Source: a candidate division NPL-UPA2 bacterium Unc8 (lineage in GTDB: Bacteria; NPL-UPA2). Taken from it: a stretch of 64,000 nt of DNA. Below are positions 1-63,277 of this stretch, in pieces. Numbering within the stretch: the stretch's first letter is position 1; every line of letters starts with the position of its first letter. The notes beneath the pieces are model-generated. The model did no database searches and was not told the origin of the DNA. It saw nothing but the letters and a program-made list of their open reading frames with translations. The translations under genes and the position numbers were made by a program. Location of the stretch: assembly GCA_003574845.1 (NCBI GenBank), contig NDHY01000001.1, positions 9,043 through 73,042 on the forward strand. The letters run 5' to 3'.

Positions 1-259
1 ACCAAAAACCTGTTTTTTGCTTGAATAACACCACCGTTTTCCATAAATCTGCTTCCTCAGAGTTCCCCTCTAAAATCAGGTGTAAATGGTCTGGCATGAA
101 GATATATACCCAATTCTTGCAGGCATATTTATTTTTTGCTTCTATCAGAATTTCTAAAAACTTCTCAACTATTATTCTCTCGGTGAAAAGAACTCTCTTT
201 TCCTCAATGCAGAAAGTAAAATTTACCCTCACTTTTCCCTTATAGGAATTTAGAGGCAA
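1..259 (-). mobile_element. REP-associated tyrosine (HUH/Y1) transposase, RAYT-like; 5' part only, runs off window edge
   Basis: Manual translation of the minus strand gives RKHRLPLNSYKGKVRVNFTFCIEEKRVLF...WVYIFMPDHLHLILEG...FKQKTGFW, with the HUH motif MPDHLH. No upstream in-frame ATG (TTG at 259 or a downstream GTG possible). Not in the ORF track. Confidence 0.85.
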
Positions 260-1383
260 TCTGTGCTTTCTTTCTCTCGCAGGCTGAAGCCTGCGGCTAC
301 CATTTCTACTTTCCTTAGAGCTTTAATAAATTTCTCATTCTGCTCTTCGGTCCCCACCGTTACCCGGATAAAGTTAGGCAGGTTATACATCCTCATTGAC
401 CGAACGATGATGCCTTCTTTAATCAACCTCTCTGTAGCTTTATCTGCATTCATCCCAACATCAACTAAAACAAAATTAGCCTGCGAGGGAACGTAAGTAA
501 TCTTCATTCGGGTGAATTCCTGATAAAGAAATTCCTTTCCTTCACTGTTTGCGCGGCGGCTTTTTCTAACATGCTCTTTATCTTCTAATGCTGCCCGGGC
601 AGCTACCTGAGCAAGAGAGTTGACATTAAACGGCTGGCGCACTCTGTTCATTTCCCCGATGAACTTCTCTCCCGCAATGCCATATCCTATTCTCAAGCCT
701 GCCAATCCATAGACCTTAGAAAAAGTGCGCAGTGTAATCACATTCCTTCCATTTTTTACATAGTCAATAGTCTCAGGAAAATCATTGCAGTCAACGTACT
801 CGTAGTAAGCCTCATCAAAAATGACGACTACGTTCTCAGGAAGCCTCTTCATAAATGAAGCAACCTTGTCTGCGTTAACCATCGTTCCTGTAGGATTATT
901 TGGGTTGGCAATAAAGATAAGCTTTGTCCGCTCATTTATTGCCTGAGACATTGCCTCAAGGTCATGAGTGTAATTCTTAAGCGGTACCGAGACGCACTTT
1001 CCACTCATTACAACTGCAGCCAGACGATAAATAATAAACCCCGGTTCAGCAAATACTACCTCTTCGTCTTCATTAAGGAAGGTCTCCGTAATTATTCTGA
1101 TAATCTCATCGGAGCCATTGCCAAGAATGACATTTTCTTTCCTTACTTTCAGGTGCTCTGCCAGTAGATTTTTTAGATAATGAGCACCCCCATCAGGGTA
1201 AAGGTTTATTTTGCCCAGTGCGCTTTTTATCGCCGCCACTGCCCGCAAGGATGGTCCCAGGGCATTCTCATTTGATGCCATTTTCACAGCCTTTATTCCC
1301 AGCTCCCTTTCCACTTCCTCTATTGGCTTGCCAGGCTCATAAGGCTCAATGTTTTTTACTTCCCTTCTAACCAACTCATCCAT
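250..1383 (-). CDS. hisC: Histidinol-phosphate aminotransferase
   Basis: YEPGKPIEE, ASNEN, NPNNPTG, DEAYYEY and LRTFSKVYGLAGLRIGY (PLP lysine) motifs. ATG at 1383 is preferred over GTG at 1404. Confidence 0.93.
   Translation of the reverse strand: MDELVRREVKNIEPYEPGKPIEEVERELGIKAVKMASNENALGPSLRAVAAIKSALGKINLYPDGGAHYLKNLLAEHLKVRKENVILGNGSDEIIRIITETFLNEDEEVVFAEPGFIIYRLAAVVMSGKCVSVPLKNYTHDLEAMSQAINERTKLIFIANPNNPTGTMVNADKVASFMKRLPENVVVIFDEAYYEYVDCNDFPETIDYVKNGRNVITLRTFSKVYGLAGLRIGYGIAGEKFIGEMNRVRQPFNVNSLAQVAARAALEDKEHVRKSRRANSEGKEFLYQEFTRMKITYVPSQANFVLVDVGMNADKATERLIKEGIIVRSMRMYNLPNFIRVTVGTEEQNEKFIKALRKVEMVAAGFSLREKESTDCL
278..300 (-). repeat. GTAG-tagged REP palindrome (GTAGCCGCAGGC-TTCA-GCCTGCG)
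   Basis: GTAG tag followed by a 7-bp hairpin, directly upstream of the RAYT-like frame and inside the hisC 3' end (encodes VAAGFSLR). Confidence 0.85.
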
Positions 1384-2767: not shown

Positions 2768-2842
2768 CACCAGTTACAAATTACAAACTCCCTGCCTGCG
2801 GCAGGCAGGTAAATCCTACCCTGAACTTGATTCAGGGCTAAA
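2768..2842. repeat. 75-bp composite repeat (second copy 28280-28354) with two nested palindromes
   Basis: 74/75 identical to 28280-28354. Contains CCTGCCTGCGGCAGGCAGG and CCCTGAACTTGATTCAGGG. Confidence 0.9.
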
Positions 2843-19667: not shown

Positions 19668-19828
19668 TGTCCAAATTAGCCGTCATTACCCGGTTTAACC
19701 GGGTAATCCAGTTTTTTGCATCGACGATAGATTACATCTGGATTGCCCGATCAAGTCGGGCAATGACAGGATTGAAAATTTGATCTCAAACAGCTGTTAT
19801 CGTCGTAAAAGACTTGCTAATTTGGACA
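19668..19828. mobile_element. MITE-like element: 13-bp terminal inverted repeats enclosing an inverted GTCATT-REP doublet
   Basis: TGTCCAAATTAGC (19668-19680) and GCTAATTTGGACA (19816-19828). Inner arms GTCATTACCCGG-TTTAA-CCGGGTAATCCAG (19682-19711) and CTGGATTGCCCGA-TCAAG-TCGGGCAATGAC (19738-19767). Confidence 0.8.
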
Positions 19829-19893
19829 TGTGTGGTGATTAGTGATTAGTAATTAGTGATTGGTGACCAGTGACCAGTTACCATTTACCATTT

Positions 19894-19972
19894 ACCATTC
19901 ACCAGTTACCAACAAAGTAGCGGTGCGACCCCGATTTGCATCGGGGCATGCTTATCGATGATTGTTTCTGAA
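19894..19972. repeat. 79-bp dispersed repeat (second copy 42389-42467; shorter variant near 22018-22064)
   Basis: 78/79 identical. Contains GTAGCGGTGCGA and the hairpin CCCCGAT-TTGC-ATCGGGG-CATG. Confidence 0.9.
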
Positions 19973-20034
19973 GGCAGAATTTAGGTGTTAGCCCTGAATC
20001 AAGTTCAGGGTAGAGTTTAGGGAGCAAGATACCG

Positions 20035-21006
20035 ATGATTAAAAGAGATGTGCCCACTAATACCCAAGATCTAACACCTAAGACCTTATTAGTTACCGGT
20101 GGAGCAGGATTTATTGGCTCCCGGGTTGCTGCCAGTTTTGCAAATGAAGGGTATAGAGTTGTAATTGTTGATGACCTCTCAACCGGCAAAAGGGAAAATA
20201 TTCCCCGGGGAATAAAATTTTATCACCTTGACATATGCAATAATGTAGAGTTAGAGAAGGTATTCAGTAAGGAGAAGCCGCAGTATGTCAGCCATCACGC
20301 AGCCCAGATAAATGTGCGAAGGTCTGTGTCAGACCCCTGCTTTGATGCTCAAATCAACATATTAGGAATGATAAATGTGCTGGAAAATTGCCGACGCCAC
20401 AACGCTCGCAGAATAGTTTTTGCCTCTTCAGGAGGAGTGCTTTATGGAGAGGGGGAGGACCTTCCGTTTGACGAAAAATCTCCCCTTCAGCCCTTCTCTC
20501 CCTACGGGGCAAGTAAATGCAGCGGAGAGCATTATCTTCATTGTTATGCCCAACTCTATGATCTTGAGTTTATCTCGCTGAGGTACAGCAACGTCTACGG
20601 CCCCGGACAGGACCCATCAGGAGAAGCAGGAGTTATTGCCATCTTTATCCTAACAATGCTAAAAGGAACTTTGCCAACTATCTTTGGCGACGGAGAACAG
20701 CTCCGCGACTACGTTTATATTGACGATATTGTTATGGCAAATAAGCTGGCACTAAAAAAAGGAGGCAGGAGCGCTTTTAATATTGGAACCGGGCGGCCTA
20801 CTTCGGTCAATGAATTGTTTAGAATGATTGCCAGAGAAATAGGATTTCCCAATAAGCCGATTTATGCTCCCTGCCGGCAGGGAGAAATATTAAAAAACTG
20901 TCTTGACATCGCAAGAGCCGAAGTCCTTCTTGACTGGAAGCCAACAATTCAACTGGAAGAAGGGATAAAAAAAACAATAGCTTCTTTTAAAAAAAAATAT
21001 GTATGA
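20035..21006 (+). CDS. NAD-dependent epimerase/dehydratase (UDP-glucose 4-epimerase-like)
   Basis: VTGGAGFIGS, YGASK, NVYGPGQ and GEAGVIAIF motifs. Confidence 0.88.
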   Translation: MIKRDVPTNTQDLTPKTLLVTGGAGFIGSRVAASFANEGYRVVIVDDLSTGKRENIPRGIKFYHLDICNNVELEKVFSKEKPQYVSHHAAQINVRRSVSDPCFDAQINILGMINVLENCRRHNARRIVFASSGGVLYGEGEDLPFDEKSPLQPFSPYGASKCSGEHYLHCYAQLYDLEFISLRYSNVYGPGQDPSGEAGVIAIFILTMLKGTLPTIFGDGEQLRDYVYIDDIVMANKLALKKGGRSAFNIGTGRPTSVNELFRMIAREIGFPNKPIYAPCRQGEILKNCLDIARAEVLLDWKPTIQLEEGIKKTIASFKKKYV

Positions 21007-28279: not shown

Positions 28280-28560
28280 CACCAGTTACAAATTGCAAAC
28301 TCCCTGCCTGCGGCAGGCAGGTAAATCCTACCCTGAACTTGATTCAGGGCTAAACCCTAAACTACTTACTACCTACTACCCACCACTTACCACTTACCAC
28401 TTACCAATTACCAATTACCAATTTCCAATTACCAATTACCAATTTTCAATTTCTAATTTCCATTTTCATCTCTCTCTACTTACCACTTACTACTTACGAC
28501 TTATTTCTCTGTGCCTCTGTGCCTCTGTGCCTCTGTGCCTTTGTGCCTTTGTGCCTTTTT
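28280..28560. repeat. Composite repeat spacer pheT-pncB
   Basis: 75-bp repeat copy followed by C(C/T)ACTTA, CCAATT(A/T) and TGTGCCT(C/T) arrays. Confidence 0.9.
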
Positions 28561-38776: not shown

Positions 38777-39751
38777 TTAGCTCTTTGTCTCTTTCACTTT
38801 ATCCTTCAGCGTCGGTATAACCTTAAAAAGGTCACCAACGATGCCGTAGTCCGCTACACTAAAGATAGGTGCTCCGGCATCCTTGTTGATGGCTACTACG
38901 AGTCCGGCGCTTCGCATACCGGAGACATGCTGGAAGCTGCCACTGATGCCAATGGCAAAGTATAGCTTTGGCTTAACTGTTTTTCCGGATTGACCTACCT
39001 GGCGCTCTTTTGGAAGCCACCCTGAGTCAATTACAGGGCGAGAACCAGCAACGACACCACCAACGGTCTCAGCAAATTCATTGATCAGAGGGATGTTCTT
39101 TTCCTCTTTGATGCCGCGGCCGATGGCAACGACGGTGTCAGCCTGGGTAATGTCTACATCACCCACAGCCGCCTCTACGTACTCAAGAAATTTTTTCTCT
39201 TCTATTTCTTCAGTCAAGGGAAAGGCGACAGAAACTACTTCACCCTTTAATGTTCCTTCTTCAGGAGAAAAAATTCCCTGCCTGACCGTGGCAATGTATC
39301 CCTGGCTTTTACAGAAAGAAACCTTTGCATTTATTTTACCGCCATACATCTCGCGAGTGGCGAACAAATTCCCATCTTCTATTGTTAGGTCTGTGCAATC
39401 CGTAATTAGAGGCATGTCCAGCTCTATAGCCAGCCGCGGGGCAAGGTCCATCCCGAAGCCAGTGTGACCAATTAATATCAAGCCCGGGGTATGCTCAGTA
39501 ATTAGGGGAAGAAGTACCTCTAAATAGGTGCTTGAATTAAAATTCTTCAGTTTCTTATCTTCAACAACCAGGACTCGGTTAGCATAAGCAGAGAGCAGTT
39601 TTGTGAAGTCTCCCACCGTCTTACCCAGTAGTACTACATCCAGCTCAGCAGAGGTGGCTCCTGCCAGCTCTTTACCCTTGGTGAGCATCTCCAGAGTAAT
39701 ATCCCTGAGCTTACTTTTCCTGTGTTCAGCCAAAACAAAAATTTTTTCTAT
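38777..39751 (-). CDS. etfA: Electron transfer flavoprotein alpha subunit
   Basis: GSRPVID, QVGQSGKTVKP and GISGSFQH motifs. The N-terminus (M)EKIFVLAEH implies an ATA start at 39751. Confidence 0.92.
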   Translation of the reverse strand: MEKIFVLAEHRKSKLRDITLEMLTKGKELAGATSAELDVVLLGKTVGDFTKLLSAYANRVLVVEDKKLKNFNSSTYLEVLLPLITEHTPGLILIGHTGFGMDLAPRLAIELDMPLITDCTDLTIEDGNLFATREMYGGKINAKVSFCKSQGYIATVRQGIFSPEEGTLKGEVVSVAFPLTEEIEEKKFLEYVEAAVGDVDITQADTVVAIGRGIKEEKNIPLINEFAETVGGVVAGSRPVIDSGWLPKERQVGQSGKTVKPKLYFAIGISGSFQHVSGMRSAGLVVAINKDAGAPIFSVADYGIVGDLFKVIPTLKDKVKETKS

Positions 39752-40598: not shown

Positions 40599-40618
40599 GA
40601 TTACCACCTCCTATTACA

Positions 40619-40790
40619 AAACCCTAAACTCTAAACCCTAAACTCTAAACCCTAAATCCTACCCTGAACTTGATTCAGGGCTAAATAAATTCAAATGTTC
40701 CAAATCCAAATAACCAAAACTACGTCTTGAATTTCGGTCATTTGAGTTTTGAGTTTGTTTCGAGTTTCGAGTTTCGTATTTAGAGTTTAG
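40619..40790. mobile_element. Composite MITE-like element with inverted AAAC(C/T)CT / TTTAG(A/G)G heptamer arms, copy 1
   Basis: Core 40652-40760 is 108/109 identical to 57406-57514. Confidence 0.85.
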
Positions 40791-40795
40791 GCTTC

Positions 40796-40913
40796 TCTGT
40801 GCCTTTGTGCCTTTGTGCCTCTGTGCCTCTGTGCCTCTGTGCCTCTGTGCCTTTCCCGATCCCCGATCCCCGACCCCTGATCCCTGACCCCTGATCCCTG
40901 ATCCCCGACCCCT
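40796..40913. repeat. TGTGCCT(C/T) 8-mer array followed by CCC(C/T)GA(T/C) 7-mer array
   Basis: About 7 and 8 tandem units, directly after the stop of the Fe-S oxidoreductase gene. Confidence 0.9.
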
Positions 40914-40914
40914 A

Positions 40915-57393: not shown

Positions 57394-57551
57394 AAATTCT
57401 AAACTCTAAATCCTACCCTGAACTTGATTCAGGGCTAAATAAATTCAAATGTTCCAAATCCAAATAACCAAAACTACGTCTTGAATTTCGGTAATTTGAG
57501 TTTTGAGTTTGTTTAGAGTTTAGAGTTTAGGGTTTCGTATTTAGGGTTTCG
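57394..57551. mobile_element. Composite MITE-like element, copy 2
   Basis: Core 57406-57514 matches 40652-40760; the right arm supplies the gmk stop codon. Confidence 0.85.
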
Positions 57552-62899: not shown

Positions 62900-63277
62900 T
62901 GTCATTCCCCGGCTTGACCGGGGAATCCAGAAAAGAATGGAGAAAAATTATTACGTTTACATTTTAGCAAGTAAGCGAAATGGGACGTTATACATTGGAA
63001 TAAGCTCTGATTTAATAAAACGAACCTGGGAACATAAGAATAAAATTGTTGAAGGTTTTACACAAAAATACAATGTTGATAAACTTGTATACTATGAACA
63101 ATACCAAAACCCAGAGAATGCAATAAGACGAGAGAAAAGATTAAAGAAATATAACCGCAAATGAAAATTAGATCTGATAGAAAAATTCAATCCCAATTGG
63201 GAAGATTTATACGATGATATTTCTGGATTGTCCGATCGAGCATGCCCTCTGACTCGATCAGGGGTCGGACAATGACA
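62900..63277. mobile_element. GIY-YIG gene bracketed by inverted GTCATT-type REP palindromes
   Basis: Left arm TGTCATTCCCCGG-CTTGA-CCGGGGAATCCAG; right arm CTGGATTGTCCGA...TCGGACAATGACA with a 24-nt nested insert. Confidence 0.8.
62937..63275 (+). pseudogene. GIY-YIG nuclease with an internal TGA
   Basis: YYVYILASKRNGTLYIG and AIRREKRLK motifs; TGA at 63162-63164, then KLDLIEKFNPNWEDLY continues in frame. Confidence 0.85.

Follow-up and report, generated by a model that had tools for sequence, protein, structure and literature searches.

Near the start of the window, by which is meant the whole stretch of 64,000 nucleotides analysed here, two short palindromes interrupt an array of heptamer repeats, and the initial annotation took them for ultra-short mobile hairpins. 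The question raised by this locus is whether each copy of such a hairpin arrived by a jump of its own or whether the hairpins were multiplied together with the repeats around them. Around 2791..2837 the window reads ...acaaactc-CCTGCCTGCGGCAGGCAGG-taaatc-cta-CCCTGAACTTGATTCAGGG-cta-aaacc..., and the two palindromes are called B and A, respectively, below.

Hairpin A and palindrome B in the window

The copies of A and B in the window are as follows.

2791..2809, plus strand: palindrome B (CCTGCCTGCGGCAGGCAGG), two 9-nt arms around one G
2816..2840, plus strand: CTA, hairpin A (CCCTGAACTTGATTCAGGG), CTA; A itself at 2819-2837
19989..20013, minus strand: CTA, hairpin A, CTA, without B; A at 19992-20010, flanking units CTAAACT and CTAACAC
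28303..28321, plus strand: palindrome B, second copy in the window
28328..28352, plus strand: CTA, hairpin A, CTA; A at 28331-28349
40659..40683, plus strand: CTA, hairpin A, CTA; A at 40662-40680, at the 3' end of a five-unit CTAAANN array
57413..57437, plus strand: CTA, hairpin A, CTA; A at 57416-57434, followed by module M (described below)

Hairpin A is 19 nt long, with a 7-bp stem (CCCTGAA/TTCAGGG) and the loop CTTGA, and is followed by CTA-AAAC at the 2819 copy. B at 2791..2809 splits a heptamer between C and TAAATC, and nine bases (TAAATC-CTA) separate it from A. Removal of B (19 nt) and of A with one CTA (22 nt) returns the flanks to one heptamer register, which bears out the earlier description of two palindromes within an array of reconstructable register. 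The CCCTGAA hairpin had also been said to occur five times in the window, each time between CTA and CTA, and this is exact at all five sites; the flanks further agree with the statement that the 40662 and 57416 copies are without B.

In total, six matches to A were found in the window (five exact and one site with three mismatches, at 39020 on the minus strand) against 0.03 expected, and none of 100 shuffled windows reached six. B was matched at 2791 and 28303, with 0.01 expected. The predicted folds of A and B are as drawn, with -15.4 kcal/mol as single-stranded DNA (z -5.08, 0 of 200 shuffles as good) and a z of -3.92 for the predicted fold of the RNA of the other strand. The observation of A and B is confirmed as real and far beyond chance. 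Tandem arrays of 7- and 8-nt units are densely packed in the window, with 92 listed. The three-mismatch site at 39020 lies within a gene, is conserved letter for letter in the sister species and was rejected as unrelated to A. The stem CCCTGAA is one mismatch away from the unit CCCTAAA, a likeness that was likewise set aside, at an estimated one in five or so by chance.

Copies and flanks across the genome

The genome searched, with a rated completeness of 94.7%, comprises 24 contigs and 996,215 bases. The initial annotation had proposed that all genome copies be collected with their flanks, and the collection yielded 14 exact A copies, none with one or two mismatches, and near-invariant immediate flanks. 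All 14 are intergenic by a crude ORF call. On the 5' side, TAAA at -9 to -6 and CTA at -3 to -1 are present in 14 of 14 copies; on the 3' side, C at +1 and A at +4 are present in all 14, and CTA at +1 to +3 in 13 (CAA in the other). The context consensus is TAAAN(C/T)-CTA-[A]-C(T/A)A-AA inside CTAAANN heptamer arrays, with at least 9 nt on both sides common to every copy. A always follows the CTA of a CTAAANN unit, and a fresh CTAAANN unit follows A. The nearest spacing between two A copies is of the order of kilobases, and head-to-head pairs never occur. B is present genome-wide in four exact copies and one with a single mismatch, each 9 or 16 nt upstream of A, and one shortened form of B (three mismatches) stands without A.

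A lies within 60 nt of 11 of the 37 CTAAANN arrays of at least two units and of 2 of the 8 arrays of at least three units, which indicates that it is not an obligatory part of these arrays. Both neighbouring genes were called for 13 copies; 10 of these have A 20-301 nt upstream of a start codon, on the opposite strand, and 3 have it at convergent gene ends. The five copies between same-direction genes have one common orientation.

Beyond the immediate flanks, longer sequences are held in common by groups of copies, one of which is module M.

40681..40769, plus strand: module M, right flank common over at least 88 nt to 5 of the 14 A copies

M is carried by the copies at 40662, 57416, C7:7903, C18:34958 and C22:17943, and the length of this common right flank indicates that the 40662 and 57416 copies and the three others are duplicates of a longer block. 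A left flank of 40-45 nt that includes B is common to three A copies, and two more A copies have B. The left and right flank groups cross-combine, with one A copy having both B and M. The 19992 copy had been regarded as an independent event; however, about 60 nt of its left flank are in common with a copy on contig C14, with a one-heptamer offset. Of the 12 tandem occurrences of the unit CTAAAAC, 9 are within 40 nt of A, versus 10 of 30 for CTAAACT, which indicates that neighbouring heptamers travel with A.

The 28331 locus has a paralogue on contig C12 with matching left and right modules (41 bases identical on the right-hand side), the middle of which consists only of (CTAAACC)n, without B and A. 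Since the array length differs too, it is an approximate rather than an exact empty site. The existence of arrays with the same outer modules and no hairpins indicates that A and B are extra to the array. The flanking CTA had been interpreted as a 3-bp duplication. This interpretation was not upheld, as such a repeat arises whenever the right-hand array starts at a unit boundary, an estimated 1 in 7 cases or so; in addition, tagged relatives of A usually end in CTA on the 3' side (see below).

Strains and related species

A scan of metagenome contigs for CTA-A-CTA recovered nine contigs of the same organism, 99.3-100% identical, which cover 5 of the 14 loci, all of them filled, and no new sites of A. 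At one locus (C2:17455), two near-identical strains (L157 and L160) differ over about 15 nt immediately 3' of A, and the differing patch matches the flank of the A locus at C1:151267, which looks like gene conversion between A copies. At least half of the sampled words of the window were found in each of five public sequencing runs. For four of these, the short-read contigs break off at 28325 and begin at about 20026-20037, immediately next to the hairpins; therefore, filled and empty states are unreadable in these four runs.

The only other genome of the same genus is that of a sister species (G001), with about 85-92% nucleotide identity between genes. Apart from the in-gene site, no match to A within three mismatches was found in it, which is weak evidence of absence since this assembly is 76% complete and consists of 330 contigs that are often broken at repeats. 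The orthologous gaps are assembled at four loci (28331, 19992, 40662 and C1:151267) and hold a wholesale different mosaic or none. Other arrays occupy the gaps at 28331, 19992 and C1:151267, and around 40662 the orthologous genes abut, about 20 nt apart, without the mosaic that separates them here.

40617..40914, no strand: intergenic mosaic of about 298 nt (heptamer arrays, A, M and an octamer array), absent in the sister species

This mosaic separates two genes of the same strand and lies between the stop of the first and the ribosome-binding site of the second. Synteny is broken in the sister species at C4:20554, and its contig ends at C2:17455. The wholesale differences at the four assembled gaps indicate that between species the intergenic mosaics are replaced in their entirety; at no site was the hairpin the sole difference. 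The expectation of filled and empty alleles was not borne out, as no filled/empty pair was present among the strains, the assembled runs and the sister species. The 14 identical copies and the lack of any in the sister species support a recent multiplication of A.

B was found in exact form in three relatives without A (two copies in G001, four in G002 and one in G007), with other flanks, which indicates that A and B are separate elements. B is older than A and a separate palindromic repeat of the same order of bacteria. CTA-flanked A was not found in other genomes of the phylum. One of these (G012) contains 24 copies with one to three mismatches to A; the four copies examined are all tagged (three GTCA and one GTCG), and two of the four lie beside an inverted partner hairpin.

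Relation of A to tagged REPs

Tagged REPs are described as having a CGTC, TGTC or CCTC tag, an 8-9-bp stem starting A-T, a 4-5-nt loop and a short tail (PMC3733652). They are mostly head-to-head dimers, were known from five phyla and had no known transposase (Di Nocera, De Gregorio & Rocco 2013, PMC3733652), and a subset of them comprises the Neisseria dRS3/NTS and the "Ssn-related motifs" (SRMs) (PMC3733652; Chenal et al. 2025, PMC11893778). Ssn proteins are small GIY-YIG nucleases that bind these motifs as single-stranded DNA and cut a few bases upstream (PMC11893778); for SsnA, the cytosine after the palindrome is reported to be most important for binding and the three bases before it for cutting (PMC11893778).

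The 19-nt core of A is identical in tagged copies of many phyla. In addition, A has a 5-nt loop, the CTTGA of which is common to two canonical tagged copies in this genome, and like the tagged REPs it is intergenic and dispersed, with a cytosine after the palindrome. However, the tag (CGTC/TGTC/CCTC) is present in 0 of the 14 A copies, whose 5' flanks read (C/T)CTA. The stem of A has 7 bp and the A preceding it faces C, in contrast to the 8-9-bp stem from A-T of tagged REPs, and A is never paired, whereas tagged REPs are mostly head-to-head dimers. A lies always inside heptamer arrays between CTA and CTA, as do 0 of 129 copies elsewhere among the matches listed, and its 3' tail is CTA rather than CCA in 13 of 14 copies, with C after the palindrome in 14 of 14. 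Since the tag, the stem start and the dimer habit are not found in A, it is not assigned to the tagged REPs; with the tag in none of the 14 copies, it is the identity of the core that points to a descent from them. A is best seen as a REP-type palindromic unit and a putative tagless offshoot of the (C/T)GTC-tagged REPs, one in which the core, the loop and the C after them would have been kept, with a 3' CTA that matches the usual CT(N) tail, and which stands without GTC and the closing T. What is unusual is the tagless form, the single fixed register in heptamer arrays and the host genome of about 1 Mb.

The published degenerate SRM pattern fits 0 of the 14 A copies and 0 of the 129 cross-phylum copies among the matches listed, tagged ones included, which indicates that it is too narrow for this stem type. 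In this genome the pattern is matched at seven sites, four of which are perfect hairpins, versus 0-8 sites in 20 mononucleotide shuffles.

The 19-nt core in other phyla

The exact 19-mer of A occurs at no fewer than 120 loci in one-genome-per-species contigs of many phyla, and a hand estimate of the chance expectation in 596 Gb is about 4. Among the matches listed, the groups with the core include Bacteroidota, Treponema, Sulfurimonas, Nitrospirota, Melainabacteria, Dehalococcoidia, Patescibacteria, Armatimonadota and others. Of the 129 copies with full flanks among the matches listed, 83 have GTCA directly 5' of the core (44 CGTCA and 30 TGTCA), 77 of these 83 have TC on its 3' side, and 89 of the 129 have the extra closing A-T pair; CTA on both sides is present in none of the 129 outside this genome. 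The tagged copies have T-CT(N) on the 3' side, and many cross-phylum copies adjoin an inverted partner hairpin whose stem differs by paired changes (again among the matches listed).

The untagged core was also observed inside the loop of another REP of the same superfamily in other phyla (L009, L014, L032, L080, L083, L091 and L108). These nested copies amount to at least 7 of the 45 untagged copies among the matches listed, which suggests that the core can be inserted as a unit even when bare. The 2013 paper on tagged REPs does not use the term "nested" (PMC3733652).

Tagged hairpins with the core were seen beyond the five phyla of 2013, among the matches listed, in Elusimicrobia, Dependentiae, Melainabacteria and Armatimonadota as well as in Dehalococcoidia, Nitrospirota, Patescibacteria, Tectimicrobiota and others. 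One locus (L017) was considered as a heptamer-embedded copy on account of its heptamer-like flanks and was rejected, as the copy lies inside a coding region. A search of the window against Rfam returned no family at gathering score except three tRNAs, and 20 cross-phylum loci gave only weak matches (E 0.009-0.9, far below gathering scores). No match was found for 15-mers of the hairpin family as literature text, and a term search of a genome paper on a serpentinite-spring candidate phylum (PMC6305446), which is not claimed to describe this genome, gave no mention of repeats, palindromes, heptamers, intergenic sequence, hairpins or transposase.

RAYT-like genes and the ssn-like gene

This genome contains six RAYT-like genes and an ssn-like gene. 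The window starts within one of the RAYT-like genes.

1..259, minus strand: RAYT-like Y1 transposase gene that extends beyond the window (genome C1:8855-9301); six such genes are present genome-wide
278..301, minus strand: GTAG-tagged REP adjoining this gene

A second, different GTAG-type hairpin lies on the other side of this gene, outside the window. The other five RAYT-like genes are at C1:2484-3218, C20:38057-38719, C12:164011-164949, C12:65779-66630 and C18:97175-98095. The best NCBIfam match of all six is the REP-associated tyrosine transposase; one of them exceeds the cut-off, and two reach 79.2 of 80 bits. Four of the six have their own matching repeats or hairpins on both flanks, and A flanks none of the six. 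Three RAYT-like genes encode a C-terminal helix-turn-helix, one of them DnaA-like. In REP/BIME and REPIN-RAYT systems, GTAG-tagged REPs are described (Bertels & Rainey 2011, PMC3116915). The likeness to these systems lies in short extragenic palindromes that are mixed with other short motifs in mosaics, and in the presence of RAYT-like genes; however, A has no GTAG tag (its bottom strand reads (T)TTAG), forms no doublet and has no RAYT-like gene alongside.

Canonical tagged hairpins number about eight in this genome, four of which fit the published pattern and two of which have the loop CTTGA of A. Those in the window, together with the ssn-like gene, are as follows.

19681..19710, plus strand: canonical tagged REP with CGTC, a 9-bp stem starting AT, loop TTTAA and tail CCA
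19739..19769, minus strand: canonical TGTC-tagged REP with loop CTTGA, as in A; inverted partner
62900..62930, plus strand: canonical tagged REP, 6 nt upstream of the start codon of the ssn-like gene; fits the published SRM pattern
62937..63164, plus strand: ssn-like gene for a small GIY-YIG nuclease, 75 codons
63224..63276, minus strand: tagged REP on the downstream side of the ssn-like gene; its loop contains a second hairpin

The tagged REP at 19681..19710 is absent at the orthologous site of the sister species. The CGTC/TGTC-tagged pair is enclosed by a palindromic element of about 160 nt (19669-19831) with the ends TGTCCAAATTAGC and GCTAATTTGGACA, which is also absent at this site of the sister species. 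The ssn-like gene is flanked on both sides by canonical tagged hairpins and not by A. Relatives have open frames of 98 aa and a conserved Trp at the position where the gene found here ends in a TGA; this gene is therefore probably broken (a pseudogene). In a relative (G002), an ssn-like gene is flanked by hairpins of the same CTGAA stem type, one of which ends in CTA.

Comparison with other repeat systems

The embedding of A in heptamers resembles descriptions of Nostoc punctiforme. Elhai et al. are said to have described there, in 2008, the small dispersed repeats SDR1-8, hairpin units of about 20-27 nt that are often embedded in heptamer tandem repeats. These SDRs reportedly are inserted at precise positions, are sometimes nested and were proposed to be the smallest mobile elements, and SDR1-8 are said to be confined to a subgroup of cyanobacteria. 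By these descriptions, A is alike in its length of 19 nt (22 with CTA) and in its precise point after the CTA of a CTAAANN unit, and the nested core copies in other phyla recall nested SDRs, whereas the phylum is different, the genome is of about 1 Mb and the core of A belongs to the tagged-REP family. Passages on these Nostoc repeats are also contained in PMC3116915 and PMC4390886.

Heptamer arrays are described as cyanobacterial STRR and as the TAACTGA repeats of Beggiatoaceae (PMC4679880). They are similar to those found here in that head-to-tail 7-nt units fill intergenic gaps; however, these descriptions concern arrays and not hairpins embedded at a fixed register.

A further comparison is with prokaryotic MITEs, which have inverted ends and a short flanking direct repeat, as A has 7-bp inverted ends and, in 13 of 14 copies, CTA on both sides. 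However, 19 nt is far below MITE size. We know of no matching autonomous element. Empty sites of the MITE type were represented by an approximate paralogous one (on C12), with no orthologous one among the sister-species loci checked.

Origin and spread of the hairpins

The reading favoured here, with a probability of roughly 0.55, is that the hairpins entered the arrays once or a few times and then multiplied with the mosaic, recently in this lineage. B would have entered a heptamer array at C|TAAATC and A at CTA|AAAN, each once or a few times. The copies would then have been multiplied and reshuffled together with neighbouring heptamers and modules through segmental duplication, unequal exchange and gene conversion among arrays; the multiplication would have taken place recently, in this lineage. 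An original insertion into a pre-existing array is favoured because the register is restored on removal, for which the estimated chance is about 1 in 7 per hairpin; we infer this insertion, as well as the enzyme involved and any present function of A. Directly shown are the sequence of A, its copy number and fixed flanks, the longer flanks in common, the family relationship of the core and its absence from the sister species. Block copying and array exchange explain the present spread at least as well as repeated jumps of 19-22 nt do. The following counts against this reading. Removal of 19 nt (B) and of 22 nt (A with CTA) restores the register exactly, as it would after a hairpin-sized insertion, and recombination was seen directly in one strain-level patch only. 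Finally, the complete identity of the 14 copies is as compatible with active transposition or strong selection as it is with concerted evolution.

Transposition of A (with 7-bp inverted ends and a duplicated CTA) and of B (without duplication), each alone, into the heptamer arrays, as is said of the Nostoc small dispersed repeats, with the fixed flanks as a matter of target choice, is unlikely. The driver would be a resident single-strand enzyme, either a RAYT-like Y1 transposase or an Ssn-like nuclease. Consistent with such transposition are the register restored on removal, arrays both with and without A, the independent distribution of A and B among species, at least six different right-hand contexts and several left-hand ones, the 14 identical copies with none in the sister species, the six RAYT-like genes in about 1 Mb and the nested cores of other phyla (at least 7 of 45 untagged copies among the matches listed). 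However, no filled/empty pair was found at the five strain-level loci or in the sister species (six loci checked, four assembled across the gap), at least five copies plainly arose by duplication of a block of at least 110 nt, A is not found beside any RAYT-like gene, A has neither GTAG nor the CGTC tag, and the ssn-like gene has a premature stop. What stands of the original proposal of ultra-short mobile hairpins is that they are extra to the array, in register, separable and recently multiplied; that each copy is an independent 19-22-nt jump is not supported. In a related and rather improbable account, the bare core would be the moving unit, which, being tagless, would escape cutting by Ssn, keep the base needed for binding and be homed to CTA|A of telomere-like arrays. 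That the enzyme was one of the six RAYT-like proteins, or Ssn before its gene broke, and that the nested copies arose by the same process, is a comparably speculative part of this account.

The copy number of A might also be due to function rather than to mobility, with A a selected cis-element that is bound by a protein (for example, an Ssn-type or other binder of single-stranded DNA) or acts in the RNA upstream of genes. Such an element would agree with the lack of any change in the 266 nt (14 x 19) of A next to variable heptamers, and with the position of 10 of 13 copies upstream of an opposite-strand start codon (by 20-301 nt), with one orientation in same-direction pairs (5 of 5); the cytosine key for SsnA binding (PMC11893778) is present in 14 of 14 copies, with the three upstream bases that govern cleavage changed. 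This explanation is nevertheless quite unlikely, as A is absent at the orthologous gaps of the sister species although the neighbouring genes are conserved and lies also at convergent gene ends (3 of 13); it has no U-run and is therefore not a terminator, and no Rfam family was found at gathering score at the window sites. An assembly artefact or a chance similarity has practically no probability left. The short-read contigs of four public runs that end at the hairpins indicate that the repeats trouble assemblers; however, nine contigs from three separate metagenome assemblies contain the same CTA-A-CTA unit at five loci with 99.3-100% identity, and the chance expectation in the window is 0.03.

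Taken alone, the finding extends known repeat biology modestly. Few bacterial repeats are as widespread as tagged REP hairpins, and their partner nuclease Ssn was described in 2025 (PMC11893778). A lineage with a tagless core in 14 perfect copies and one register is a natural experiment that separates the role of the core from that of the tag, and A provides short, testable substrates in the form of CTA- versus GTC-flanked oligonucleotides to be used with Ssn and RAYT-like proteins. If true, a moving bare core would be one of the smallest mobile DNAs known and would tie together REPs without a transposase, the Nostoc SDRs and the STRR arrays.

Other repeats in the mosaics

STRR-like satellite DNA of a genome of about 1 Mb takes up and carries other repeat families. 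At one locus (L203), a tagged REP cluster follows a CTAAANN array, and in the sister species a larger MITE with the inverted ends ACCCAAGTTTGACA lies in a heptamer array between TCTA and TCTA (L204, G001:C38:2750-3200); the arrays thus seem to collect other repeats. A third fixed module of this genome is built on the hairpin CCCCGATGCAAATCGGGG, with 12 exact copies and one with a single mismatch genome-wide (for example, at 19929-19946 of the window). Each copy lies within about 70 nt of conserved sequence, mostly between a CAGCNTT array and a GGT(A/C)AAT array.
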